Source of the DNA: Shigella phage ESh9
Sequence record: ON528722
Direction: 5' to 3' (one strand)
Length of the DNA: 39,308 bases
The position numbers and the translations under genes were made by a program. Below the pieces are notes generated by a model that saw nothing but the letters and a program-made list of their open reading frames with translations, was not told the origin of the DNA and did no database searches. Numbering within the stretch: the stretch's first letter is position 1; each line of letters starts with the position of its first letter. Shown one piece after another: positions 1 through 14,011 of the stretch.

Positions 1-732
1 GGAAACAGCGGCACGGTCAGCAGAGTCTTTAGCCTCATTCCGGTATGACATGGAGTGAAGCGCGTAGGTTCGTGATGATTCTAGATTTGGCTCCACAGCG
101 GTTTCCTTAACGGCCCACTGTTTTGATAACTCAGCAGACCCAGCAGAAGAGCTTGCAGAGCTTGCAGATGCGTTCGCAGAGTTGTTCGCATCGTTTGCAC
201 GAGCGGTCGCACGGTCAGCTTCCTGTTTCGCTCGATTCGCAGAGTTCAACGCAGAGTCGTTCCACCGTTGGATTTGACCTAAGTTGATTGCGTCACCTAC
301 ATCTTGCGCATCCGCAACGTTCACAATACGACGACCACGAGCATCCAAGTTCCCATCATTGTTAACGCCAATTGTATCAGCGGTAAGGTCACGGGCTTCC
401 TCAGCAACGTGAAGGGTCTGAACCTGAGATATGTTCAAATCATATGCCCGCAGGATAGAGCCGTCGGTAAAGTCAACCAGACGGTCTGTAGCGGAGGTGA
501 ATCGCCTGATTTCAATCAAAGTATATCCGTCCGCTGGCCCCAATGCTCTCGTTGTAGAGATTGTGGTCTTAGTCGCAAAACGATAGTCTTGATTCAAGAT
601 GAGTTCCTTTCGGTCAACGCCGATAAGTGTCACTCGGACGAACTTACGAGCCAGATACTCAAACGGAATATTGAAGTCCGTAGTGGAGCCATCCAGCGGG
701 TAAGTCATCACGGTCTTAATAGTTGTAGCCAT
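1..732 (-). CDS. 17: Tail fiber gp17, N-terminal part (ATG at 732; continues in frame into 38091..39308 if the window is circular)
   Basis: SD GGAGGT then ATG at 732; translation MATTIKTVMTYPLDGSTTDFNIPFEYLARKF... matches the recalled T7/T3 gp17 N-terminal anchor; no stop before position 1. Confidence 0.85.
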   Translation of the reverse strand, partial: MATTIKTVMTYPLDGSTTDFNIPFEYLARKFVRVTLIGVDRKELILNQDYRFATKTTISTTRALGPADGYTLIEIRRFTSATDRLVDFTDGSILRAYDLNISQVQTLHVAEEARDLTADTIGVNNDGNLDARGRRIVNVADAQDVGDAINLGQIQRWNDSALNSANRAKQEADRATARANDANNSANASASSASSSAGSAELSKQWAVKETAVEPNLESSRTYALHSMSYRNEAKDSADRAAVS

Positions 733-785
733 GTGACCTCCTTTGTAAATTAGCATTAAGAGAGAAGAGGCCAGAATGTGACCTC

Positions 786-808
786 TCTCCCTTTAGTGAG
801 GGTTTATT
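786..808 (-). promoter_or_regulatory. T3-type phage RNAP promoter upstream of gene 17 (one-mismatch variant)
   Basis: Reverse complement reads AATAAACCCTCACTAAAGGGAGA; overlaps the gene 16 stop. Confidence 0.7.
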
Positions 809-3800
809 GGCGAGGGCGTGTTGCATCATCCTTAATCTTGATGCCCTGCTCTTCGAAGATGTGCATAATCAACTGTTGTGTCAGCGGGTCATTGGGGACA
901 AGCTCACGCATGGAGTTGAACACACCAGTACGGAACTCTACCTCACTCTGCTTACCATCAGAGCTAAGTAGCGTAGAGGCATTCATGGCGGTAGACCCAA
1001 TGTTCCCAACTAGTCCTACAGCTGGTACTTGGTTGGATATCGCCCCTACTATGTTACCCGCAACCTCCTTACCAGTCCAAGCCTTGTTGCGGTCACGTTC
1101 GGTCTTTTCCTTTGGTAACACCGTTGAGCGGGTGTACTGGTAGGTATCATTACCGAACAAGCCACCAATCATATCATAGACAGACAGTGGGGAACCAAGG
1201 TGTGAACTTCTGGATAATGACGCGTGGGCAATCATTTTAGGGTCAAGAGCATTCTTGAGGTACTCCTTACGCTTGTGCTCCTGTAGGCCGTAAGCCTTCA
1301 AGTGCGCCTGAGCAACATAGTAACCACCAGCCAGACCCATAGAGATGATTGCAGTCAGCGCAGAATCGATAGCCCTGTTGTTCTTAGTTGCGTCATAGAA
1401 CAACCTAACGAAGCGCGAGTTAAGAGACTTGATTACGAAGTTCTTAAACTGCATCACCATCTTGACAGCCGCTCCGTAAGCCTTGGTGTCCTGTGAGGAA
1501 ACCTTATGCGGCCTAAGGATAGTCTCATCAGCAACCTTATCAGCCAGACGCCATAAGTCCATAGTCCGTGGGTCATTAGCAAAAGCCTGTTTGTCCCGGA
1601 TTGTAAACTTACCATCAGCATCACGAGTAGCGTGGTCACGGAACAACTGCTTTATTCCCTTCCACTGCTCAGGTGACACAGAGGCAGACTTAAGGTAATT
1701 CGCTTTACCGAACTTAGAGCCTTTCCCAGCGAGCGCTGCCCCAGCCACATCACCCAGTACACCCTGTCTGGCAGCATCGATGATGTAGTTAGAGGTTCCA
1801 TTAAGCAGCATCGTCCAAGGTGAACGCGCAGACAATTCCTGAGTGCCGAAGCGAATAGTCCCAACCACATTAGCCACCACTGCGTTAGTGTCAGTAGACT
1901 CCCGAAGGCGACGTATATGGTCTTCACGCCCCGGACGGATAAGCTGGTCTAGTTCCTTCCCGAACACCATACCATGAATCTCCTTAATCTCAGAGCCACT
2001 CAATGGCCTACTCCTGCTTACCCAATCGTTAAGCAGTGGGATTCCATGAAGTACCGCAGAGGTGTTTCCTTTACTCAACATAGCAGCAACCTCTGTGAAG
2101 TTCTGGAACGGCATGTAGAAGTTCTTAGCGAAGAAAGCCAAGTCAGTCATGGAGCGAAGAATCGTACCGAAAGCTCCCTCTGGGTTCATGCGGGCACGAC
2201 CAGTCAGAATCTTCACGGTGTCCTTGAGTGCTTCGACTTCACCTTTCAGTGAGCCGTTACCCTCAGACTGCTTGTCCAGCGCCATGATTTCATCTTTCAG
2301 TTCCTTCGTCGTCTTACCCGAACCACCCATGATAGCCACGTCACCATCAACTCGACGGTCATAAGCAGGAAGAATGTCAGCCATATCGTAGGTACGCAGG
2401 TCGTTCACAGAGAACGTGCTACCATCCGGGAGAGTCACAGCCATGTCGCTGTCGAACATGTTACGGGCCTCCAAGAAGTTATTGTTCTCGATGCCAACCA
2501 GACCCTCAAGGTTTTCATCAATGATAGAGGATGCAGTGAATTGGTCAGTGTGCGATATACCGTAGGCTTTATCCATGGCGTACTTCTCAGCCATCTGACG
2601 CAGCATCGCCTCTTCGTCTACCTTAGGTTCCACCTTCTCACCAGTGCCAAACTTCTGACGCTCTGAGGGCTTCGCTGGGGCAGAGTCATAGGCTTTACGG
2701 AATGCACGACCATCTGGTGTGCGAACACCACCAACAGTCTCATCCGTACCGCGATACACGTAGTCAGGACTCTCGGTCTCCGCAATGCGATACATCTCGG
2801 TTGCGATACCCTTACGGCGGTACTTCTCGGACACTTCCAGGCTCGGGTTCTGCCACACATCGCCGTCACGTTTAGCGAACTCTACGCTACCCACATGCTC
2901 ACCTTTCTTAGTGAACACGTCGACTGCGAACTCAGCGCCTTCAGCCGTCTTCGCGGTATAGTACACAAAGTCACCATCCACCTTGTACGGAGTCTCGCCT
3001 GAGTAGTCACGCTTACCTGCGAAGTAGTCACCCTGTAGCTCACCATTGGTGACCTTTGTGACACTAGCGGAGTTACCGCCAGTGACTAGGGAGTCAGGCA
3101 TGGCAGGAGTCGCCTCAGAGCCACGCAGGAAGTTCTCAGCGTCCGCAGCAGCTTGTGCTCCTTTGGTTGCCTTCTCGAACTCGTCAGCGTGAAGCTCTCG
3201 GAGGTACTCATCGACTCTCGCCTTGACTTCTGGACGAGCGCGGTAAGATGTAAGCCACGACTCTGCAATTGCCCGTTGTAGTCCCTCGTTACCGTAGCGA
3301 CTCACCATGTACAACTTTATAGCTCGGTCATATACATTAGGCACGTAGGTTCCGTTATGGCGTGAGCCGGGGAATATGCTACGAGCTTTGACGTTCCCGA
3401 AGATAGCAGGGTTTTCCATGAGTTCGCGCTTGAGGTCGAAGTGTTGTTTCAGGATATCCATCACCTTACGTTCTCCCTTTGTGAGTCCTGATTGTAGCTC
3501 TGGTCTCTCAATCGCTAAGGCAGCACGCTTATAGATTTCCTGTCGTACTTCCTTACGGCTCATCTTCACACCACCTGTAGAGAACTCAGGGTCTTTCATT
3601 GCAGTACGCACAGCATCATAAAGCTGATTGTAGGTGCGCTGATTGTTCGCGTGGAGCCGCTCCTTAATGTCAGAAGCAGTAGCACCGAACTTACCGGAAG
3701 TCCCTGACTCCATGCCAGTTGGAGAACGCACAAGGTCACTCGCAATGGAGCGAACAGTCGGGTTCTCAGAGCGGAGAGTCTTCAAGCCAATCTCAGTGAA

Positions 3801-5333
3801 ACCACCCAAAGAGATACCACGAGCGGCACGCTCAGGGTTGACCTCCTCGAACTCGCTAAGAGTCTGAGGGTTCAGCGGGTTGGTGTCGCTAAGGATTTGA
3901 CCTTGAGGCAACACAACGGCACCCGGCTCAGTTTCAAGTGGAGAATAGTTCACCCCGGCATGTTCCCCATCAAAGGAGCGACCATCTGTTGGCATACGTG
4001 TTAAGTCCTCGCCACCAGCTTGAAAGGCAGACTCACGCGCCTCCAGTCGAGTAGCAATGCGGTCGAAGTCGTTACTAACTTGACCAGCGCGAACACGGCC
4101 CAAGGCTGCACTCACACCATCAGCTATTGCGCTCATCCCGGCCCCGAACATAAGACCACCAAGGATTGCATCTTGATAGTGCGCCTCACCACCAGCAACG
4201 GATGTACGAACAGCTTCTGAAACTGCGCTCAAGGCTGCACTTTGGGCACCAACAACGAACGCCTTGTTTACCACCTTGAGACCCTTTCCAGCAACACCAA
4301 CAAGCGGCACATAGCTCAATGGGTCCACACCAGCCCCAACGATTCCACCAACCAACTTCGCTCCCACGCCAGCACCTTGAGTCTTCGCAGCCATAGCCGC
4401 ATTCTCATTAGCCAGTTTAATCAGGTCATCCAAATTCTCTGGGTCTCCTCCAGTAACAACGTTGATGTAGTTTGGGTCTTTTACCTCGTTACGGATACGC
4501 TCTAATTGCTCAGTCGTCCATGTAGTGCTGTTCCATCGAGTTGGGGTAATAGCGTCCTTGAAGATGTCAAAACTATCATCAAAACGCGCAGCATTGAAGG
4601 CAACACCCAATAGCGAGTTATGAAGCTCGGCACTTGTGGTGTCCTTTATCCCGAAGAATGTTGAACGGTTTTCATATTCCTCAACGGTAGTTCCATGTTT
4701 ATCGTAGAAATCCTTAGTGAACGGTACGGCAGGGGCCTGTTGTTCCACACCCTCCAGCTTAAAGCCAGTTGATTGTGGAAGCTCAGTTCCTACCTTCCCG
4801 GCCTTACCGATTCCAGCAAAGGCGTCCTCAGCGGGAATCCCTTTAGCCTTTGGGGTTATCCCACCGAACGCCTCCAAGTCTCCCTTGCGCGGGCTGTTAG
4901 CCACATCGAGAAGTTTACGCATGTAGTTGCGACCCTCCTCGCTGATAGAGGCCCAATCGCCTCGGTCATAAGCCTGCATTTGTGGAGCGCCATTGCGTCC
5001 CTCTCCTTGGTTGTACGCTAGGGCCGCTTTGAGTTCATCCCCGTCGTATTTCCTAACGAGGTCGCTCAGGTGGCGAGCGGCTGCGTCCACAGCCAACTCA
5101 GGGTTGAATCTCTCATCGTCATCTCCCCCTGTAACCTTGAGTCCAAGCCCCGATGCCGTACCTTTAGTGAACTGCATTAGACCTAATGGCCCGGTAGGGC
5201 TTTTGGCTTTCGGATTGAAGCCAGACTCGTTGAACGCCAATTTACGAAGCAGGCCATAGGAGACCCCATGTTCATCTGCCGCTTTCTGAAATAACCCATC
5301 ATACTCAGATGGTTTCGTCTTGTCGTAGCTCAT
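804..5333 (-). CDS. 16: Internal virion (core/ejection) protein gp16 with N-terminal lytic transglycosylase domain; 1509 aa, carries an internal insertion of about 195 aa
   Basis: N-terminus MSYDKTKPSEYDGLFQKAADEHGVSYGLLRKLA...GPLGLMQFT is the T7 gp16 SLT domain; recalled T7 gp16 similarity along the whole length except aa 716-912. Confidence 0.9.
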   Translation of the reverse strand: MSYDKTKPSEYDGLFQKAADEHGVSYGLLRKLAFNESGFNPKAKSPTGPLGLMQFTKGTASGLGLKVTGGDDDERFNPELAVDAAARHLSDLVRKYDGDELKAALAYNQGEGRNGAPQMQAYDRGDWASISEEGRNYMRKLLDVANSPRKGDLEAFGGITPKAKGIPAEDAFAGIGKAGKVGTELPQSTGFKLEGVEQQAPAVPFTKDFYDKHGTTVEEYENRSTFFGIKDTTSAELHNSLLGVAFNAARFDDSFDIFKDAITPTRWNSTTWTTEQLERIRNEVKDPNYINVVTGGDPENLDDLIKLANENAAMAAKTQGAGVGAKLVGGIVGAGVDPLSYVPLVGVAGKGLKVVNKAFVVGAQSAALSAVSEAVRTSVAGGEAHYQDAILGGLMFGAGMSAIADGVSAALGRVRAGQVSNDFDRIATRLEARESAFQAGGEDLTRMPTDGRSFDGEHAGVNYSPLETEPGAVVLPQGQILSDTNPLNPQTLSEFEEVNPERAARGISLGGFTEIGLKTLRSENPTVRSIASDLVRSPTGMESGTSGKFGATASDIKERLHANNQRTYNQLYDAVRTAMKDPEFSTGGVKMSRKEVRQEIYKRAALAIERPELQSGLTKGERKVMDILKQHFDLKRELMENPAIFGNVKARSIFPGSRHNGTYVPNVYDRAIKLYMVSRYGNEGLQRAIAESWLTSYRARPEVKARVDEYLRELHADEFEKATKGAQAAADAENFLRGSEATPAMPDSLVTGGNSASVTKVTNGELQGDYFAGKRDYSGETPYKVDGDFVYYTAKTAEGAEFAVDVFTKKGEHVGSVEFAKRDGDVWQNPSLEVSEKYRRKGIATEMYRIAETESPDYVYRGTDETVGGVRTPDGRAFRKAYDSAPAKPSERQKFGTGEKVEPKVDEEAMLRQMAEKYAMDKAYGISHTDQFTASSIIDENLEGLVGIENNNFLEARNMFDSDMAVTLPDGSTFSVNDLRTYDMADILPAYDRRVDGDVAIMGGSGKTTKELKDEIMALDKQSEGNGSLKGEVEALKDTVKILTGRARMNPEGAFGTILRSMTDLAFFAKNFYMPFQNFTEVAAMLSKGNTSAVLHGIPLLNDWVSRSRPLSGSEIKEIHGMVFGKELDQLIRPGREDHIRRLRESTDTNAVVANVVGTIRFGTQELSARSPWTMLLNGTSNYIIDAARQGVLGDVAGAALAGKGSKFGKANYLKSASVSPEQWKGIKQLFRDHATRDADGKFTIRDKQAFANDPRTMDLWRLADKVADETILRPHKVSSQDTKAYGAAVKMVMQFKNFVIKSLNSRFVRLFYDATKNNRAIDSALTAIISMGLAGGYYVAQAHLKAYGLQEHKRKEYLKNALDPKMIAHASLSRSSHLGSPLSVYDMIGGLFGNDTYQYTRSTVLPKEKTERDRNKAWTGKEVAGNIVGAISNQVPAVGLVGNIGSTAMNASTLLSSDGKQSEVEFRTGVFNSMRELVPNDPLTQQLIMHIFEEQGIKIKDDATRPRQ

Positions 5334-5355: not shown

Positions 5356-7599
5356 TTAGTCTTCTTTACGCCCATAGATAAACTTAGGAACCTTTTTCCG
5401 TTTCTCTTGGACACGATTAGCTGCTTCTTTACGAGCCTTTGTTGCCGCTACGATAGGTGCTCGCTTATTGGCTTCCGCCAAGGCTTTCTTCTCAGCCGAC
5501 GCCGCCTGTTGCTCAGCATAGTTCTGATACACCTTACGAAGCAGGGTGTTATCGTAACTTATACCCAAGTTGGTAGTGGTATCGTAAATCTTGATTAAGT
5601 TACCCTGTTGGCTAACCTTAAGCTGTTTGTTTGTGACCCAAGGGTTTTGCTCTTGGTACTTCTTAACAGCTTGCTCAATGATATCCTTACCTTGCTCCCA
5701 AGATTTAGGGTCATCTGTTACCTGCATCATGTTGCGAGGGATTACACCGTAGGTTCCACCATCTACGTTATCCGAAGAGAATGTATAGGTAGTGTCCTTT
5801 AGAAATGAACTAACTGCGGCCATCGCATCCTTCGGGTTTCCTGTTAGGTACTTCTCAGAGTCGTAAATAATCTGAGCGTACTCGCGCATAGAGGCCGGAA
5901 GGTATTTCAGTTCAGGCTGCGCAGAGTTGTTCATCAGTTCGCTGAATGCCCGCTCGTCCTCAATCTGCATTTCACGCGTTTTCCCTTGGCGGGATTTGGT
6001 GGCGTTAATGAGGGCTTGCGGCTTTATCCCCTGTCGATCCAATTGGTCCATTGTGTGAAACAGCTCGGCATCGTCAGGATACAGTGCTGCGAACAATCCG
6101 GGGTCAATGTTGCGCATCTTGCGTAGGGAGTCAAGGGCTGGTGTGCTATCAGGCATCTCGCCATTGATGACGGCTGCTTTCCATTCACCGCGAGCATCCG
6201 ACACCATCTGCCCTACAGCGGTTCGGAAGGCACCATCTTTAGAGTCAGCTTGGAGGTACTGCAACTTCATGCGGTCCTTCTGCGCTTCCGTCAGGTCCAT
6301 AGCATCAATCTGCGCAAGTTTCTGGTTCGCATAGTTCACCATATCACTATGATCAAACTCACCAGTGTTCTCGTTTGTTGGCATGTCCTTGTAGTCAGTC
6401 GAAACGTACTCCCCATTGATTCGCTTCTGGAATTGCTTGTCGATGACCAAAGACTTGTTGATGGTCTTCTGTTGCTTATCCATAAGTTTAGCGGTTTCGG
6501 CGGCCTCTTGTTTGAAGCGAGTCTGCATGTGCTCTTGGGCCTCAATGAGTTGCTGGCGCTCAGGTGTGAGTTCCTCTCCCGGTTGAATCTTGTCGAGTTC
6601 CGCTTTGATTCCTTGGAGAGCCTCCCATCCCTTGCCAGTATCCTCTTGGTTCAACGCAGAGTTGATACTAAGTCGGAACTTCTCTGTTAACTTAGCATTG
6701 TTCTGAAATTGAGTATGCTGTGCTTTAACCAGCATGGCCTGCCACTGTTCGTCACCCATCAGTTCACGATAGGTAGTAGTGGCACCATTCAGAGTCACCT
6801 TACGGTTCTCAATGTTCTGCAAGAAGGCTGCACCCCCCGGACGCTGTAGCACGTCATTCAGGGACGAAGAGATAACCTGTTGAGCCTGATTGTCTGTCAT
6901 CCCGGTAACTAAAGAGTTGTCGATGTAGTTCTGGAAGAACTCACCGGACTCAGGGCTGGACAATAAGTCAGGGTCAGACAGGACACCATTGAGTTCAACC
7001 TTCGAGTTCAGGATTGCACCCTTCTGCGCTTGGTCACTCAGGAAGGTATCATGTGCCCCATACAGAGCAATGTTACGCTCGGTGATATTCGCGTTGAAAC
7101 CCTTCTGGTATTCCTCGTCCATCTCATTGATGCCGAACTGCTCTGCGAACGACTTCGATTGTTCCTGTAGGCGTGAGTGTCGATACTGCTCCAACTCTTC
7201 ACGAGTACGGAAGCGACCCTCTTTGATGGCCTGTTGAACCTCATCGTCAACGAGGAACGCAGCGTTACGCCCGGTCTTGAACTTCAAGGCTTGCATTGCG
7301 TATGGGTCATCCTGATACAGCAGTGTACCATTCTGGATAGCCTGTCGGCGTTGCTCGGGGGTCAGCTTACGGATAATCTCGTTGGAGCGCTCATCGGCTC
7401 GTTGCTTATCACGTTCATCTTTCGCCATGTACATATCGGCACCAGCCTTAGCGAATCTACTAATGGAGTCCAGAAGACTCGCTCTTGGTTGTTCAGCCTG
7501 AATGGTTGCTGCCCGGTAGTCCATACCTTTGACGCCCCGGAGTCGTTCCATACCGGGAGTCGCCATGTTGCCTAAAACACTATTTAGTTTACTAGCCAT
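5356..7599 (-). CDS. 15: Internal virion protein gp15
   Basis: 747 aa, same length and position as T7 gp15. Confidence 0.85.
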   Translation of the reverse strand: MASKLNSVLGNMATPGMERLRGVKGMDYRAATIQAEQPRASLLDSISRFAKAGADMYMAKDERDKQRADERSNEIIRKLTPEQRRQAIQNGTLLYQDDPYAMQALKFKTGRNAAFLVDDEVQQAIKEGRFRTREELEQYRHSRLQEQSKSFAEQFGINEMDEEYQKGFNANITERNIALYGAHDTFLSDQAQKGAILNSKVELNGVLSDPDLLSSPESGEFFQNYIDNSLVTGMTDNQAQQVISSSLNDVLQRPGGAAFLQNIENRKVTLNGATTTYRELMGDEQWQAMLVKAQHTQFQNNAKLTEKFRLSINSALNQEDTGKGWEALQGIKAELDKIQPGEELTPERQQLIEAQEHMQTRFKQEAAETAKLMDKQQKTINKSLVIDKQFQKRINGEYVSTDYKDMPTNENTGEFDHSDMVNYANQKLAQIDAMDLTEAQKDRMKLQYLQADSKDGAFRTAVGQMVSDARGEWKAAVINGEMPDSTPALDSLRKMRNIDPGLFAALYPDDAELFHTMDQLDRQGIKPQALINATKSRQGKTREMQIEDERAFSELMNNSAQPELKYLPASMREYAQIIYDSEKYLTGNPKDAMAAVSSFLKDTTYTFSSDNVDGGTYGVIPRNMMQVTDDPKSWEQGKDIIEQAVKKYQEQNPWVTNKQLKVSQQGNLIKIYDTTTNLGISYDNTLLRKVYQNYAEQQAASAEKKALAEANKRAPIVAATKARKEAANRVQEKRKKVPKFIYGRKED

Positions 7600-7601
7600 T
7601 A

Positions 7602-8195
7602 TTACCTCCCGGTCTTGGTTCCTTTGGCGGCACTGATAGGTGCTGCTTGGTTTCCACCTTTCTTGTCAAATCCACCAGCCGCATATTGACTTGCAGCTTC
7701 CTGACCCATAATGGACAGAGGGTCTAGTACACGCATCAGACCAGACTTACCTTTGGCCTCGCTCTTGTACATTGCATCGACTTGACTAGCTGTGGACTGA
7801 GTGCGTCCCAACTGTTGCGCAAAGATACTCGCGTAGTCTCGGCGGTAATTCTCGGTGACACTATTTGCCTCCCGAATGTAGTTGCCCTCTTCGATACGCT
7901 TGATGCGCTTCATGGACTCACCTTCGAGCATACCCTCGCCGATAGCTGCACGGATGGTTCCCATAGCCTGTACCTTCTGCATGTTACGTGTAGTCAACTC
8001 AGAGGATGCAGCTTCAAGGGCGTCCCGTTGTTCCAGCGAGGCGTTGGCATTTTGGATATTCATCTCTTTTACCATCTCAATTGCCTGTCGGCGTCCGGCT
8101 TCTGTCTGTGCCACTCGCGCCTTGTCGGCACTGTTCTGGCTACTTAGAGCTTGGGCACCAGCCATAGCAATAGGAATCGCTGCCATCCAGCACAT
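7602..8195 (-). CDS. 14: Internal virion protein gp14
   Basis: 197 aa; position between gene 13 and 15; SD GGAGGT. Confidence 0.8.
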   Translation of the reverse strand: MCWMAAIPIAMAGAQALSSQNSADKARVAQTEAGRRQAIEMVKEMNIQNANASLEQRDALEAASSELTTRNMQKVQAMGTIRAAIGEGMLEGESMKRIKRIEEGNYIREANSVTENYRRDYASIFAQQLGRTQSTASQVDAMYKSEAKGKSGLMRVLDPLSIMGQEAASQYAAGGFDKKGGNQAAPISAAKGTKTGR

Positions 8196-8197
8196 AG

Positions 8198-8608
8198 TTA
8201 CCTCCTACTGATAGTGAATAATTGGAATTGACCATCAGCGGTAAACTCATTATGGAATACCGCGCCTATGGTCTTTAGGAAACGAATGTGTGACTTATTG
8301 CCTACCCAAACGAAATTCCAAATGGACTCGTACTGGCTCAGCATCATATCACGATATTCAATGATAAGTCTACGGAACTCTAAGCGCTCCTTCAAGGTAA
8401 ACAGTGGGACGTACTTAGAGGTAAGGAACCACACTCGGTCTCCCTGATTGCCACCGATTGCCAACACAGCGTTATCGCTGAGCATTGCCACAGTGTTCTC
8501 ATCAGGAATTACCTTTGGTTCAACACCTAGTGCCTCAGCTTCCAGAATGTCCTCTATGGACGGCTGAAAGTTGTCGGCATGGATTTGTAAACACTTTGTA
8601 ATATACAT
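8198..8608 (-). CDS. 13: Internal virion protein gp13
   Basis: 136 aa ORF immediately downstream of a T3 promoter; T7-like synteny. Confidence 0.75.
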   Translation of the reverse strand: MYITKCLQIHADNFQPSIEDILEAEALGVEPKVIPDENTVAMLSDNAVLAIGGNQGDRVWFLTSKYVPLFTLKERLEFRRLIIEYRDMMLSQYESIWNFVWVGNKSHIRFLKTIGAVFHNEFTADGQFQLFTISRR

Positions 8609-8637
8609 ACTGCTTTAACCCCTCGTATCTATTAGTG

Positions 8638-8661
8638 TCTCCCTTTAGTGAGGGTTAATTC
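8638..8661 (-). promoter_or_regulatory. T3-type phage promoter (phi13)
   Basis: Exact reverse complement of AATTAACCCTCACTAAAGGGAGA. Confidence 0.8.
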
Positions 8662-8680
8662 ACCACAGGGAGACTTTAAG

Positions 8681-11086
8681 TTAAATGCCAGAAGAACGAC
8701 GAAGGTAGTTCCCCTCCCAGCCGCACCCAATGATGTTCAATGGGGTTGATGCGTCTGACTCGATAGTTACTATGTTCGTCTGAGCATTGCCAACCACCGG
8801 GAAGCGGTATTGCCCTGTACCAATGTTTGAGCCTCCAACGCGGAGGTTGTCAGACCCCAATCGTGCACCAGCCATTGTGTAGATGAACTCACGGGACAGG
8901 TTGTTCACACGGATGGTGAACGCTCCAGAGTCCTCATAGTTTACCCACGCACGCCGAAGCTGTAAGCGACCAATATCCTCGGTAGCCGTCGAGCCGTCCT
9001 CAGCAGTCTTCTTGATGAGGAACTTCGAGAACGTATAAGTGAACGGGATGTTGAACCCAATGTAAACCACTTGGCCCTCTTGGTTCCCGTCAAGTCGTAA
9101 CACCGGGTCGCTGCTCCAACCGTTGATTGGCGGGTCTACCTCTATAATCTTTCCATCAGGGAAGACCACAGACACTTTACCCTTAGTGAAGTTCATCCCA
9201 TAAATCGCTGCGAGGCTTATGGACGTCTGGTAGGTATCATCATTATACGTCCCGGCAGGGATGGTGTATTTCCTCTTAGCGTCGATGTATAATCTGTAAG
9301 GCTCTCCCGGAAGGTCTATGGAGTTCTTCGTGAAGTGTAAGCGTCCCATCCACACAGCATGTTCATTGCTCATCAATACTGTCATTGTTGAGTTTATGAC
9401 CTGTGCTGCGAACACCGTAACGTTGTCCCCAAAGTCCCAATGAGACCACGACTGCTGCCTGATTTCCTCGTCAATGTAGAGGAACTTGTAGATATACACT
9501 CGGTTAGGTGCCCCGCTCGTAAGGATAGCCGCGAAGTTCTCAGCGGTTGTCCCCGATATACTGAATACTCCATTCGGTATGTAGTTCGGAACGTGAGCCG
9601 TCATGTCCTCTGCGTTCTTCACAGAGCTTACATCCTGTACCGCATAGTATCGGTTAATGGATGTGAAGGAAGCGCGAGGTGACGCAAAGTATACATTACG
9701 TCCTACACCATGTGGGCGTGCCCTATCTTGCACGTCGAACTGAGTCGTAAGGTTCAACTCTACGGAGCGACTCGAAAGGATACCAGAGGCTGTCAGAACG
9801 AACTGCGCTTGGTCAGACCACAGGAGTAACTCTTCGGAGAACGGAACGGCATACTTCAAGGTTGACACCCGGTTGTGGCTAACCGCGACGTCGATTGGGT
9901 CATCGTCGGAGTAGTTTGACACGGAGGCCGGGAAGAAGTTGAAGTATTTCGAGGTGCGAGACAAGATGATGTTCTCCCCACTAAGGAACCCCAAACGGTT
10001 ACGGAAGAAGAAAATATCGTTGATTGTCTGTCCGGTAAACGATGGGTATGGGTTGGTTGTATCATCGCCCACAGTACGAGCACCCCACTCAAGGTACTTG
10101 AAGTCAAAGTTCCCGTCAGAAGCACGTACCAGCGCCCAAGGCATCGTGTGGTAATGTAGGTGAGTCCTTGTGTTCCAGCCAATTGTTTCTACCCATACCT
10201 TACGGTTGAGGTCGAACCTAACGTAATACTGGTCGGCAGTCTTGGAGGTGTCACCTACAATCTTCACAATGTACCCATCTGGAGCGTTAATAGGCAACTT
10301 CTGGAACGACTGAGTGTAATGGGTTACAGGGTTGATTAGCTGGTCTGCGTAACCATCCTTAGTCTGTAGTCCCCAAACGTTATCGTTATTTGGCGCAAGG
10401 ATATGGATGAATCCGGGGCCAACGTTGAAGCGCCACTTATTCGGGTCTTGTGCGTTGCTCGGGTTCCCTAGGTTATTTCGCAACTGAGCCGCCAGCTTCT
10501 CAGCGATGGCCTGACCGTCAACCTCATTGACGTGTGCTGGTTGTGAGCCGTCTGGTAGTTGAACAGCAGCACGCTCAGCACCGTTGAACTCGATTGAGAG
10601 TCTACGCCCATATTGTCCACCACGAACATTAATCAGTGCATCGCCTTGGTCTTTAAAGCCCGGAAGGTTGACCGATTGGTCGTTACTCTGCACGACCACC
10701 TTGCGGTTAGTCACAAAGGTATAATCAGCCACAGTTACCATCCGAAGGTCTTCCCGTGGGTTAGCTGTGCGCACATAAGAGCGGTCTCCACGCACTTGGT
10801 ACTCCTTACCGTCGAGGTCGAATACCTTAATGTCTTCACCAGTGAACACAACAAAATACTGCTCGAACTCATCACGGTTGATGAGGTGAACGTAAGGTTG
10901 CGCACCCACATACCCAGCAGCGCCAAGGGTCTTAAGGTGAATCATCGGTGGGCGCTTCTGGAGACCCTCGGACTCAGAAGACCAACCGTTAATCTGAACG
11001 CTACCTTGTTCAGCGAACCGGAGAATATCTGGCTGTTGGCTGATACCACCCTTGAGGTTTTTGATTGATTGGCTAATGAGAGCCAT
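8681..11086 (-). CDS. 12: Tail tubular protein B gp12
   Basis: 801 aa; size and synteny as T7 gp12 (794 aa). Confidence 0.9.
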   Translation of the reverse strand: MALISQSIKNLKGGISQQPDILRFAEQGSVQINGWSSESEGLQKRPPMIHLKTLGAAGYVGAQPYVHLINRDEFEQYFVVFTGEDIKVFDLDGKEYQVRGDRSYVRTANPREDLRMVTVADYTFVTNRKVVVQSNDQSVNLPGFKDQGDALINVRGGQYGRRLSIEFNGAERAAVQLPDGSQPAHVNEVDGQAIAEKLAAQLRNNLGNPSNAQDPNKWRFNVGPGFIHILAPNNDNVWGLQTKDGYADQLINPVTHYTQSFQKLPINAPDGYIVKIVGDTSKTADQYYVRFDLNRKVWVETIGWNTRTHLHYHTMPWALVRASDGNFDFKYLEWGARTVGDDTTNPYPSFTGQTINDIFFFRNRLGFLSGENIILSRTSKYFNFFPASVSNYSDDDPIDVAVSHNRVSTLKYAVPFSEELLLWSDQAQFVLTASGILSSRSVELNLTTQFDVQDRARPHGVGRNVYFASPRASFTSINRYYAVQDVSSVKNAEDMTAHVPNYIPNGVFSISGTTAENFAAILTSGAPNRVYIYKFLYIDEEIRQQSWSHWDFGDNVTVFAAQVINSTMTVLMSNEHAVWMGRLHFTKNSIDLPGEPYRLYIDAKRKYTIPAGTYNDDTYQTSISLAAIYGMNFTKGKVSVVFPDGKIIEVDPPINGWSSDPVLRLDGNQEGQVVYIGFNIPFTYTFSKFLIKKTAEDGSTATEDIGRLQLRRAWVNYEDSGAFTIRVNNLSREFIYTMAGARLGSDNLRVGGSNIGTGQYRFPVVGNAQTNIVTIESDASTPLNIIGCGWEGNYLRRSSGI

Positions 11087-11101
11087 AGAGCCTCCTTATG
11101 A

Positions 11102-11692
11102 TTAGCGGTTAAGTAGACCAGAGGTGAATGCGTCACCGTCCAGCATGTTGTAGTTACCGTAGTCTAGCTCGTACTCGAAGCACGCACGCCATGCTTCCTG
11201 TTCCTCTTCCTGCAACACTCCGTCTACCTCCGGCGCACCGAAGAAGCGGTTGTTAAACTGGCGGGAAGCCTTGGTAACGATATAGTTTCGGAAGCACTCA
11301 GGCATCTCATCGAACTCTCTCAGACGAATCAGGTTGACCTGAACACCAGAAGGAAATCGGTCAGTCTTCGCAGAGCGGTCATAAAGATAGCCACCACGGT
11401 TGATATATTGGGTCTGACCGCTGGTTGCCATTACGGACAGATAGTCAGAGCTAAATGGAATCATACCAGAGAACGCATCCGGTAGAAGAGTCACACCTTC
11501 CTCAATGTTGAATGTCCATCCTCGTGACTGAATCTGTCGGTTAATCTTGTTGAGCACACGTCGAGCATTTGCAACATCAGCGTTTGCATCACCCTCAAGG
11601 GTCGATACTGGTGGCTCACCGATGGAAGCCAGAATGTCGTTGACGGCTGATAGCTCTTCTGCGGTCTCAATGTTCATCTCATAAGAGCGCAT
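11102..11692 (-). CDS. 11: Tail tubular protein A gp11
   Basis: 196 aa, identical length to T7 gp11; synteny. Confidence 0.9.
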
Positions 11693-11697
11693 GATGT

Positions 11698-11720
11698 TAC
11701 CTCCTGTTAGTGAGGGTTAA
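11698..11720 (-). promoter_or_regulatory. T3-type promoter variant upstream of gene 11
   Basis: Reverse complement TTTAACCCTCACTAACAGGAGG (about 3 mismatches to consensus). Confidence 0.5.
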
Positions 11721-11770
11721 AGCAAAAAAACCCCTCAGACTCCCAAAGAGGGAACCCAAGGGGTTTGCTA
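11721..11770 (-). terminator. Tphi-like late transcription terminator after the capsid gene
   Basis: Reverse complement CTAGCAAACCCCTTGGGTTCCCTCTTTGGGAGTCTGAGGGGTTTTTTTGCT: GC hairpin plus U-run, resembling T7 Tphi. Confidence 0.8.
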
Positions 11771-11774
11771 GGTT

Positions 11775-11890
11775 TTACTCAGTGGCCTCTTTGAGAGCCT
11801 TGTTACGTGCCCTCGTGATAGCGGCTTTCTGTGCAGGCGTTAACTCATCGTTAGAGCTTGCCACTTCGTCCGCACCGCTGATTACTTTGC
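11775..11890 (-). CDS. 10B: Capsid 10B C-terminal extension reached by -1 frameshift from 10A
   Basis: -1 frame past the 10A stop translates ...SGADEVASSNDELTPAQKAAITRARNKALKEATE*, resembling the T7 10B tail. Confidence 0.55.
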
Positions 11891-12922
11891 AGCAGGCAGC
11901 ACGATAGCGCCAGCAGCTTCTGGACGCAGACCACCGTGACCCATCGCGTACTTAGCGATAATCTGGTCAGCCTGATAGTTCGCACGACGAGCGCGCTCCA
12001 GAGCCAAGTCTTTCAGCTTGACCGTACCAACCGCAGAGCGGTGCTGGAACAGGCCCACAACGTTATCCAGAGCAACCTTAACGGTAGTGCTGGAGGTCGC
12101 CGGGAAAGCGTGCTTCTGGTCAGCCGGGGCATCCTCACGGGTATCGCCAGCGCCACCAGCGGTCAGGTGCGGAACCTCAACCACTTCGAAGCCCATCACG
12201 TTACGGATAGTACCGCGCTCAGGGTCAATCAGTGCCTGATAGTTTGCAGCGTTCGGCATCAGGGCAGCCAGAATCGCAGAGTAGTTATCAGGAGTGGTGT
12301 AGAAGGTGCGGTCAGCAGCCGGAACGTAGTTCTTGGTCAGAGATGCACGAGCGATAGTCAACTGAGCGATAATCGCTTTACCCAGCTCAACCGGGTCAGT
12401 CAGGTCGCCAGCGGTAGGCTTAACCAGAGTCAGTACGGTAGGCTTACCGAGACCCTCGATGTTCTCATTGGAGGCGTCCGGCAGGTTAACCAGACCAGCC
12501 AGTTCAGCCAGTACAGCACCGTCAGCCGCCATCGCCAGAGATTCACCCAACTGTGCGGTGTACTCAGCGCGAACGTCGTAGTGGTTCATCGCATCCTCAA
12601 TGTCGTAAATCAGAACGTCAGCAGTCAGCAGGCCATCAATGTGGATTACCTTCTCGGTGTGTTTGATATCCTTACGTTTGTCATCGAGGTTCTCACCCGG
12701 TTTCAGGTAAGCAGCTTTGGTGCGACCAATCACAGGGAACTGTGCGGACTTACCAGAAGCAATAGAGCGCAGCATGTGACGAGGCATGGTCACGGAGGTG
12801 CGAGCGAAAGCCGTCAGGACTTCACCGCCGAACACTTTCAGGAACAGCGCCAATTTGTCCGCTGCGGACTGACCCTTACCCTGATTAGTACCAATTTGCT
12901 GTCCGCCTTGAATGTTAGCCAT
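11882..12922 (-). CDS. 10A: Major capsid protein gp10A
   Basis: 346 aa; MANIQGGQQIGTNQGKG...KLALFLKVFGGEVLTAFARTSV near-identical to the recalled T7 gp10A. Confidence 0.95.
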   Translation of the reverse strand: MANIQGGQQIGTNQGKGQSAADKLALFLKVFGGEVLTAFARTSVTMPRHMLRSIASGKSAQFPVIGRTKAAYLKPGENLDDKRKDIKHTEKVIHIDGLLTADVLIYDIEDAMNHYDVRAEYTAQLGESLAMAADGAVLAELAGLVNLPDASNENIEGLGKPTVLTLVKPTAGDLTDPVELGKAIIAQLTIARASLTKNYVPAADRTFYTTPDNYSAILAALMPNAANYQALIDPERGTIRNVMGFEVVEVPHLTAGGAGDTREDAPADQKHAFPATSSTTVKVALDNVVGLFQHRSAVGTVKLKDLALERARRANYQADQIIAKYAMGHGGLRPEAAGAIVLPAAK

Positions 12923-13055
12923 GTTGAATCTCCTTATGTTAATTTAAAGAAAAGTTTGGTTACTACTTGAATCGAGTTGGTTCTCAATGTTTCACCTACG
13001 GGAGCGACCACAAAGTTCTGTGCTCAGGTGATTCAACCATTGTAGTCATCTATGG

Positions 13056-13082
13056 TCTCTCCCTTTAGTGAGGGTTAATTAG
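13056..13082 (-). promoter_or_regulatory. T3-type class III promoter (phi10) with translational enhancer leader
   Basis: Exact core; leader ends TTTAAATTAACATAAGGAGATTCAACATG like the T7 gene 10 leader. Confidence 0.85.
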
Positions 13083-14011
13083 AAACTGGAGTCGATAACC
13101 TTCTGTTCTACCATTTGACGGTAGGCAGCATCACTACGGTAACGCGGGTCACTCATAGCTTTAATCATCTCAGCCTGATTCGTAAAGCCCTCTTTCTGAC
13201 GAGCTACAGGTTTAACCGGAGTAGCACGCTTGGTAACACTACGGTTGGCAGGCTTACCGAATTTCTTCGTGTAACTCTCACCAGCCAGATTGATAATTGC
13301 TTTGACAGTCGCCAAGTCTCGGTTCATCATGGCAGTCTCAAGGGACTCAGCCGCAGCCGGGTTGGTTGCTTCAAGGTGCGTATGGATTGCGCTAAAGCGT
13401 TCCTTACCACCAGCAAAGGCAACTACCTGATTGACGTACTGGTCTACAAGGGCTTCCTGACCGGAGATGTAGGAGTCCACAAAGGCACGACTATAGCCAG
13501 CAGCTTCGAGTTCCGCGTAGGATTTCTCAGAGATACCATCTGCTTCGTACTCTTCGTAGATGCGAGTCACAGAGTCTGCGCTCAGTCCGCGCTCAACTGC
13601 CTGCTCGACCATCGCCTGAAAGCCTTCTTCGTGCTGACCTAATTGTTCAGTCACTTGGCTCAGTTCTTCTGGAGTGTCACCCAGCGGCTCGAACTCATCG
13701 GCCTCACCTTCGGTCTCCACCTCAGCATTATCGCTACCAGTGTCGAACTCGGCTTCATTGCCATCTTCACTGATACGAACCTGAATGCGGCCCTCATCGT
13801 CTTCACCATCAGCGAACGGGTCTACACCAGCCGCATAAGGGTCATCGTTATGGGAACTCGGTTCCTCGCTAAGTACGATTGCATCATCGCCATCACGGGC
13901 AGCAACATCGAGACTCAGCATATTCTGTTCGTGTTCAGTAGGTGTACTTCCGGTCATTACCGCGTTGTTCACACCGAAGGACGCATAAACGTCTGCATTA
14001 GATTCAGCCAT
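13079..14011 (-). CDS. 9: Scaffolding protein gp9
   Basis: 310 aa, highly acidic; position before the capsid gene. Confidence 0.85.
   Translation of the reverse strand: MAESNADVYASFGVNNAVMTGSTPTEHEQNMLSLDVAARDGDDAIVLSEEPSSHNDDPYAAGVDPFADGEDDEGRIQVRISEDGNEAEFDTGSDNAEVETEGEADEFEPLGDTPEELSQVTEQLGQHEEGFQAMVEQAVERGLSADSVTRIYEEYEADGISEKSYAELEAAGYSRAFVDSYISGQEALVDQYVNQVVAFAGGKERFSAIHTHLEATNPAAAESLETAMMNRDLATVKAIINLAGESYTKKFGKPANRSVTKRATPVKPVARQKEGFTNQAEMIKAMSDPRYRSDAAYRQMVEQKVIDSSF

Follow-up and report, generated by a model that had tools for sequence, protein, structure and literature searches.

The gp16 gene of Shigella phage ESh9 (sequence record ON528722) encodes internal virion protein D, a component of the ejectosome, and carries an in-frame cassette that gp16 of phage T7 and of the closest relatives of ESh9 lacks. 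The cassette is a true insertion, more exactly the replacement of a short linker, and it is mobile between phage genera with sharp recombination boundaries. As judged from sequence profiles and a predicted structure, it holds a minimal domain of the GNAT N-acetyltransferase superfamily, which resembles the Eco1/ESCO acetyltransferases without belonging to their family. The best-supported reading, to which we assign a probability of roughly 0.55, is that the domain is an acetyltransferase delivered into the cell, acting in early takeover or anti-defence on a host protein near the entering genome. The window analysed is the whole stretch of 39,308 nucleotides (nt), and positions refer to it unless another phage is named (Table 1).

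The gp16 protein of ESh9 has 1509 amino acids (aa), compared with 1318 aa in T7 and 1322 aa in Citrobacter phage phiCFP-1. It is a 64%-identical orthologue of T7 gp16 and matches the T7 gp16 chains in the PDB (7eyb, 6yt5) with E = 0. Alignment with gp16 of T7, phiCFP-1 and four longer gp16 proteins showed that collinear homology ends at aa 716 (...KARVDEYLRELHA) and restarts at aa 915/917, at (M)AEKYAMDKAYGISH / MAEKYAMDKAYGISH; just 10-16 residues separate these two flanking motifs in T7 and phiCFP-1. The cassette of ∼198 aa (aa 717-914, nt 2592-3185) stands in place of an 11-aa linker of the closest relatives, which are 97% identical. All of the 16 closest database records (95-97% nt identity) are without it, and their gp16 genes measure 3969 nt as against 4530 nt, 561 nt fewer. 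The reading frame is continuous with that of gp16 and has zero stop codons. Chance or misassembly is ruled out, because the cassette is in frame, stop-free and 80-93% identical at the nt level to its counterpart in 11 other phages from four genera. The first-pass annotation, made from the letters of the sequence, had set the 1509 aa of this protein against ∼1318 aa for T7 and proposed an insertion of ∼195 aa between motifs nearly adjacent in T7. Both statements hold, and its coordinates are exact: 2598-3188 translates as ADEFEK...EAMLR, and 2799-2822 as YRRKGIAT.

Boundaries at the nucleotide level were mapped by a 45-nt sliding comparison with phiCFP-1, Klebsiella phage VAC71, E. coli phage pO103 and Yersinia phage WX2. 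Identity to phiCFP-1 is ∼100% as far as position 3204 and again from 2528 downwards, and phiCFP-1 is gapped between. The tract at ∼2574-3203 is 73-96% identical to VAC71, pO103 and WX2. Its GC content (0.559, versus 0.512 in the rest of gp16 and 0.507 in the genome) is consistent with a foreign origin. No cassette more than ∼93% identical at the nt level was present among database phages, and a donor was not found there. The cassette starts with D-E-F, ends with ...L-R-Q-M and contains no cysteine anywhere. An intein or homing element was considered and rejected: no Hint, endonuclease or intein domain was matched in Pfam, cysteine is absent, and the ends are without splice-junction residues.

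The identity of the domain rests on profiles, a family of relatives and a structural model. Pfam Acetyltransf_1 (PF00583) matched gp16 aa 801-854 through profile positions 34-87 of 116, scoring 21.7 bits with the whole protein and 24.3 bits with the insert against a gathering score of 20.7. Several other GNAT families in Pfam gave matches, all below threshold, and the insert matched no family in PHROGs or NCBIfam. The relatives of the gp16 domain themselves score E 1e-19 to 1e-72, which backs the marginal PF00583 match. We aligned the 62 best single-copy relatives, which are 20-33% identical to the gp16 core, and searched the PDB with the resulting profile; the matches were almost exclusively GNAT enzymes (best E 1e-4). 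The family unit spans ∼105 residues: a beta-hairpin leads through two long strands and NPxVxV to (R/Q)RxGxA-xMYxxAE, after which comes G-x-(R)(T/S)-x-x-G-x-A-F-R. Nowhere in the family is conservation higher than in motifs A and B, and in GNAT enzymes generally the motif A and B regions form the acetyl-coenzyme A (acetyl-CoA) site. YRRKGIAT fits the canonical Q/R-x-x-G-x-G/A loop of motif A and is nearly invariant: among 58 distant family members, 41 have R and 14 have Q at position 839, 57 have R at 840, all 58 have G at 842, and 53 have A and four have G at 844. In the motif B-like segment the corresponding counts are R 47, T/S 58, G 54, A 51, F 56 and R 47.

AlphaFold2, run on the 62-sequence alignment of the core, predicted five strands and two helices with a mean predicted local distance difference test (pLDDT) score of 88.6 and a predicted template modelling (pTM) score of 0.83. 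This model supersedes an earlier AlphaFold run on the whole insert with a 10-sequence alignment (pLDDT 56.7). The modelled topology corresponds to the GNAT core fold, an antiparallel sheet with beta4-alpha3-beta5-alpha4, and motif A is placed between the strand at model residues 61-64 and the helix at 73-84. A beta-hairpin stands where alpha1-alpha2 would be, and no structure is predicted beyond the helix at 103-114. Foldseek ranked MYST and ESCO enzymes at the top, with ESCO1, MYST and HAT1 as the closest structures, and matches in BFVD were to phage 'NAT_SF' proteins, fragments of polyvalent proteins among them. The GNAT motif A to which the first-pass annotation had drawn attention has proved to be a canonical, near-invariant loop. 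The profile searches and structure prediction that it had proposed agree, with Acetyltransf_1 above its gathering score, GNATs retrieved from the PDB by the family profile, and a confident model of a GNAT-type fold in minimal version.

The likeness to ESCO1 is detectable in pairwise comparison. BLASTP aligned RRKGIAT...RTPDGRAFRKAY of gp16 with RRKKIAS...PTPDGKLFATQY of ESCO1 without gaps over 51 aa (29% identity, E 1e-4), and hhalign of the gp16 core against ESCO1 gave E 7e-5. The ESCO1 sequence was checked against PDB 4mxe, which together with 5t53 and 5n1u served as the comparison structures for the Eco1/ESCO1/ESCO2 cohesin lysine acetyltransferases. The ESCO1 motif P-T-P-D-G-K-L-F-A-T-Q-Y is matched by R-T-P-D-G-R-A-F-R-K-A-Y in gp16, where the Eco1/ESCO motif B (P-T-x-x-G-x-x-F-A-x-x-Y) is found at its fixed spacing from motif A. 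The Pfam ESCO model PF13880 gave the gp16 domain 15.9 bits against a cut-off of 22.8 and matched motif A only. Unlike ESCO, the cassette is without a zinc finger, without cysteine and without a strand after motif B, and it is bacterial-viral, not eukaryotic. We take ESCO proteins to carry an N-terminal C2H2 zinc finger, and the catalytic residues of ESCO1 to be S809 and D810, before motif B. Membership of the ESCO family was rejected, given the score below threshold, the missing zinc finger and the Ser-Asp pair that is not kept; the resemblance was retained.

Two further comparisons concern the fold. The N-terminal hairpin TPYKVDGDFVYYT (2940-2963, aa 791-798) gives a weak alignment (E 0.73) to the final strand of ESCO1, TQYCGTGQFLVYN. 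A circular permutation, pairing DGDFVYYT of gp16 with the C-terminal GQFLVYNF of ESCO1, was rejected, as this E value is at chance level. Minimal GNATs of the Acetyltransf_CG / COG2388 type, such as E. coli YjdJ (5i0c) and Arabidopsis At1g77540, likewise comprise ∼90-110 residues and retain nothing but the beta-sheet and the beta4-alpha3 cofactor core. Matches of the gp16 domain to PF14542 and PDB 5i0c are weak and below threshold. The COG2388-type GNATs are free-standing cellular proteins, and their C-terminal motif is unlike RT..G.AFR of gp16.

We searched 50,697 phage records with the insert by tblastn and found the cassette in 13 records, representing 11 phages, always inside gp16 and at the identical site. 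The carriers belong to Przondovirus, Berlinvirus, Kayfunavirus and unclassified Studiervirinae, and their hosts are Klebsiella, E. coli, Shigella, Yersinia, Pectobacterium and Enterobacter. T7-type gp16 occurs in ∼1281 records, about 1% of which carry the cassette; when 60 of the ∼1281 were sampled evenly, 58 had no insert at this site. A scan of IMG/VR with the single protein returned just two close cassettes in gp16, the other matches being solo or short distant relatives. Relative to VAC71, pO103 and WX2, the ESh9 cassette is 90-93% identical at the aa level, whereas the flanking gp16 is 59-77% identical. The reverse is seen between pO103 and PP74, where the flanks are 88% identical at the nt level and the cassette just 77%. 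Since cassette and flank identities diverge both ways, the cassette has its own transfer history. The ratio of nonsynonymous to synonymous substitution rates (dN/dS) in the core is 0.04-0.11 at dS 0.4-1.8, which shows strong purifying selection and excludes junk sequence.

The same site also receives other material. A second, unrelated cassette was found at the identical position of gp16 in 20 records (about 16 phages), including P483, Carena, NC-A, ST31, JacobBurckhardt and Yersinia phage vB_Yep_9. It is a coiled coil of ∼125 aa (SVDTASYQMKLDDAATQASDKVAELKD...) with merely generic SMC/Rad50-like similarity. In Shigella phage A7, gp16 (1644 aa; 113-5047) holds both in tandem, the coiled coil followed by the GNAT module, so that the modules seen at the slot so far are the ESCO1-like acetyltransferase-like domain, the coiled coil, or both. 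An upstream adapter, AA(D/E)(A/T)ENFLR(G/S), is common to the GNAT and coiled-coil versions, and in A7 it is duplicated, with one copy on each side of the coiled coil. A downstream adapter, PAKPSERQKFGTxEKVEPKVDEEAMLxQMAEKY, is common to all versions and follows the coiled coil in P483 and Carena. Homologous recombination at such shared adapter repeats would allow modules to be gained, lost and exchanged, and the duplicated adapter of A7 suggests gain or loss through recombination between repeats.

Relatives of the domain were sought with the insert profile among 1.84 billion representative proteins. At E <= 1e-3 the search returned 356, of which 48 reach E <= 1e-10, and every one matches through profile positions ∼80-175, that is, the core. 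The larger relatives examined are giant multidomain proteins of 1000-5349 aa, many of them polyvalent proteins of phages or plasmids. In a sample annotated with Pfam, the domain, often in several copies, lies beside ART-PolyVal, RNase_T, NUDIX, Arr-ms, SprT-like, SLT, PBECR5 and LPD39 domains; viral contigs also encode the domain solo, in versions of 114-210 aa. Directly after its internal virion protein genes, Acinetobacter phage Ab9 encodes a 2839-aa 'hypothetical protein' (5373-13892 in the Ab9 sequence) in which the GNAT-like domain at aa 785-857 is followed by a PBECR5 nuclease domain; this giant protein is probably polyvalent and ejected. On a metagenomic contig of an unrelated podophage (Logan SRR13003735), an 870-aa protein with an SLT domain and then the GNAT-like domain is encoded between the nozzle and terminase genes. 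The same contig has a separate gene for a full-length GNAT of 148 aa right after the nozzle gene, which makes two acetyltransferase-type genes in the virion module. In a 2947-aa relative (P0011), an H-NS C-terminal DNA-binding domain precedes the GNAT-like domain, and an N6 DNA methylase and an SNF2 helicase come after it; the protein resembles the P1 anti-restriction protein DarB to which an acetyltransferase-like module has been added. Tandem arrays of minimal GNAT-like units were observed in the giant proteins P0003 (3303 aa), P0002, P0006, P0014 and P0015, with up to 11 matched stretches (P0003), and the array units end in a different motif, ...S/T-x-D-A-K-K-L-W...R-x-F-G.

Polyvalent proteins of phages and conjugative elements, GNAT domains included, were described in 2017 (Iyer, Burroughs, Anand, de Souza, Aravind 2017, J Bacteriol, PMC5512222). 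That study reports one GNAT family in gammaproteobacterial (pro)phages that adjoins an ART domain and also has solo versions. It places the polyvalent-protein GNATs in a RimI-like, protein-modifying clade and predicts that they modify proteins after injection. By analogy, the gp16 cassette would follow the same logic of a virion-borne enzyme injected with the DNA. One gp16 polypeptide unites an SLT transglycosylase, the GNAT-like domain and a DNA-translocation hub, as polyvalent proteins unite their domains, and the relatives of the gp16 domain are fused to the signature domains of the polyvalent-protein network. The architectures differ: in gp16 the domain is inserted with linkers into an internal loop of a T7-type ejectosome protein, whereas in polyvalent proteins it is a bead in a giant concatenated chain. 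The likeness is to the GNATs of PMC5512222 generally. As GNATs in polyvalent proteins have been described since 2017, the concept of an injected GNAT has a precedent. What appears to be new is its place in gp16: gp16 has 0 mentions in PMC5512222, and in the literature on gp16 or internal virion protein with GNAT or acetyltransferase we found no published description of the insertion.

The place of the cassette within gp16 bears on what it could do. In T7, residues 1-228 (gp16-N) remain periplasmic with gp15, residues 411-1118 (gp16-C) are assigned to a cytoplasmic toroid, and the substitutions G737D, I754T and E761K lead to transcription-independent genome entry (PMC8954989). The cassette enters 19 residues upstream of the equivalent of T7 G737, in a stretch that is variable among T7, T3-like and other gp16 proteins. 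With its entry site in the cytoplasmic gp16-C and before G737, the domain should meet cytoplasmic acetyl-CoA where the DNA enters. Delivery into the cell with the DNA is established for T7 gp16 (PMC8954989) and is assumed, by analogy, for gp16 of ESh9.

On these grounds we propose that the cassette is horizontally acquired cargo, a flexible linker, a minimal GNAT-superfamily domain and a second flexible linker set in a permissive cytoplasmic loop of gp16. Its domain is a member of a family of small acetyltransferase-like modules that occur solo in phages and mostly inside giant injected polyvalent proteins. During infection gp16, of which the T7 core stack holds four copies, would unfold, be ejected and refold, and the C-terminal hub bearing the domain would assemble at the inner face of the membrane, at the point of DNA entry. 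There the R-R-K-G-I-A loop and the T-P-D-G-x-x-F motif may let the domain bind acetyl-CoA of the host, and the domain may acetylate an amino group of a host protein close to the DNA before any phage gene is expressed. Candidate targets would be components of defence, restriction, transcription or translation. We infer cofactor binding, catalysis, a protein substrate and a role in anti-defence or takeover, and the idea of a delivered effector is strengthened by the occurrence of the domain's relatives in injected polyvalent proteins. A more far-reaching proposition combines two claims: that the pre-clamp loop of gp16 is a plug-and-play cargo slot with adapter linkers, and that the acetyltransferase module is an active effector which, within seconds of infection, acetylates a host target of defence or takeover where the DNA enters. 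We advance this combination only tentatively.

Several observations weigh against a delivered acetyltransferase. The Pfam score is marginal, ∼1-4 bits over the threshold, and half the profile is covered. The domain is truncated, and the model is without the alpha1-alpha2 arm and without beta6/beta7; DSSP assigns no beta5. No acidic or Tyr catalytic residue is conserved among the 58 family members, and the presumed catalytic pair S809-D810 of ESCO1 aligns to G-V in gp16 and to G/Q-V/I in the family. Tandem arrays with up to 11 matched stretches per protein are unusual for enzymes. The gp16 copies entering one cell number just ∼4-6, in line with the four of the core stack and the six of a post-ejection model (PMC8954989). 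Finally, since the alternative cassette is no more than a coiled coil, the purpose of the site may be structural.

This last point leads to the rival that survives best, a non-catalytic structural or regulatory module. The domain would be a spacer, an oligomerisation element or a sensor, maybe one that binds CoA or acetyl-CoA, and would tune the gp16 hub or DNA clamp, thereby altering how fast or under what control the genome enters. The equivalent of G737, which the cassette precedes so closely, is the first position of a 127-residue stretch with transcription-independence mutations (PMC8954989). The coiled coil at the identical site in about 16 phages, the presence of both cassettes in A7, the truncation of the domain with no conserved catalytic residue, and the tandem arrays of related units in giant proteins would all suit such a role. 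It accords poorly with the residues that are best conserved across very distant relatives, which are acetyl-CoA-binding signatures. The domain also occurs in dozens of unrelated architectures without any gp16 context, which favours an autonomous activity over a structural role specific to gp16, and ∼97% of gp16 proteins work insert-free. We regard the structural explanation as possible but doubtful.

An active acyltransferase with a non-protein substrate is unlikely. The substrate could be an aminoacyl-tRNA, as for GNAT toxins, a polyamine, an antibiotic or a defence signalling molecule; GNATs are chemically versatile, the relatives are fused to NUDIX and nucleotide-directed domains, and aminoglycoside and spermidine acetyltransferases give the best sequence-profile matches in the PDB. 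The closest structures and the sole subfamily-specific motif match point instead to protein lysine acetyltransferases (ESCO1, MYST, HAT1), as does the placement of polyvalent-protein GNATs in the RimI-like protein-modifying clade (PMC5512222), and a few membrane-tethered enzyme copies would be ill-suited to deplete an abundant metabolite. That the segment has no function, being a chance motif, an assembly artefact or a selfish insert such as an intein or homing element, is highly improbable: the Pfam score is marginal and the insert is rare among gp16 genes, but it is in frame, conserved in 11 phages and under the constraint given above, its fold is predicted with confidence, it has 356 homologues, and it shows neither intein or endonuclease domains, nor cysteine, nor splice-junction residues at its ends.

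A delivered acetyltransferase would join a small group of proteins that are packaged in virions and injected with the DNA, among them the T4 ADP-ribosyltransferase Alt, P1 DarB, the N4 virion RNA polymerase and T4 IPI*. They have in common with the gp16 cassette the idea of a pre-made protein acting before phage gene expression; their chemistry and carriers are different, and none is an acetyltransferase in gp16. Ejected internal proteins are the first phage molecules in the host cytoplasm. Most of their effector roles have been predicted by computation, the few classic exceptions being T4 Alt, P1 Dar and N4 RNA polymerase. The cassette places a predicted effector domain in the best-understood ejectosome, for which there are solved T7 structures and known genetics. 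It also comes with natural near-isogenic partners without the cassette, namely phiCFP-1, 2050H2 and SH2 at 96-97% identity. These partners and the tractable T7 system make the polyvalent-protein hypothesis directly testable. Should the active-effector reading prove true, it would give phages their first demonstrated injected acetyltransferase. The carriers infect Klebsiella, E. coli, Shigella, Yersinia, Enterobacter and Pectobacterium, which bears on the choice and engineering of therapeutic phages, and the swappable slot suggests a place for delivery of engineered foreign cargo by T7-like virions. As for the neighbouring ejectosome protein, a preprint reports that T7-type gp15 moonlights against the cyclic-oligonucleotide-based antiphage signalling system (CBASS), which involves no added domain (bioRxiv 10.1101/2025.07.23.666291).

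Table 1. Features of the gp16 gene and its cassette in the ESh9 window (columns: feature; position in nt; strand; basis or remark)
gp16 gene (internal virion protein D, ejectosome component)	804..5333	minus	open reading frame (ORF), 1509 aa
N-terminal lytic transglycosylase (SLT) domain, gp16 aa 14-128	4950..5294	minus	Pfam PF01464, E 8.9e-29
Foreign recombinant tract (whole cassette, nucleotide level)	~2574-3203	minus	sliding-window identity
N-terminal linker/arm, aa 717-770 (DEFEKATKGAQAAADAENFLRG...MPDSLVTGGNS...)	3024..3185	minus	predicted helix, then low-confidence segment
Predicted minimal GNAT-like (ESCO1-like) core, aa 783-885, five beta strands and two helices	2679..2987	minus	
Motif A, R-R-K-G-I-A, aa 839-844, predicted acetyl-CoA pyrophosphate-binding loop, beta4-alpha3	2802..2819	minus	
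Motif B-like R-T-P-D-G-R-A-F-R-K-A-Y, aa 871-882, start of helix 2	2688..2723	minus	
C-terminal linker, aa 886-916 (PAKPSERQKFGTGEKVEPKVDEEAMLRQMAE)	2586..2678	minus	without confident predicted structure
A-Y-G-I motif, aa 923-926; G = T7 G737	2556..2567	minus	T7 numbering from alignment

The window as a whole is a complete T3-like (Teetrevirus) genome, circularly permuted and read in reverse, with 95-97% nt identity to Citrobacter phages phiCFP-1, SH1 and SH2 and to Serratia phage 2050H2. The neighbours of gp16 are gp15 (5356..7599) and gp17. The start of the permuted sequence falls inside gp17, and joining the tail-fibre ORF over the ends on the minus strand (756->1 + 39308->38091) gives a protein of 657 aa.

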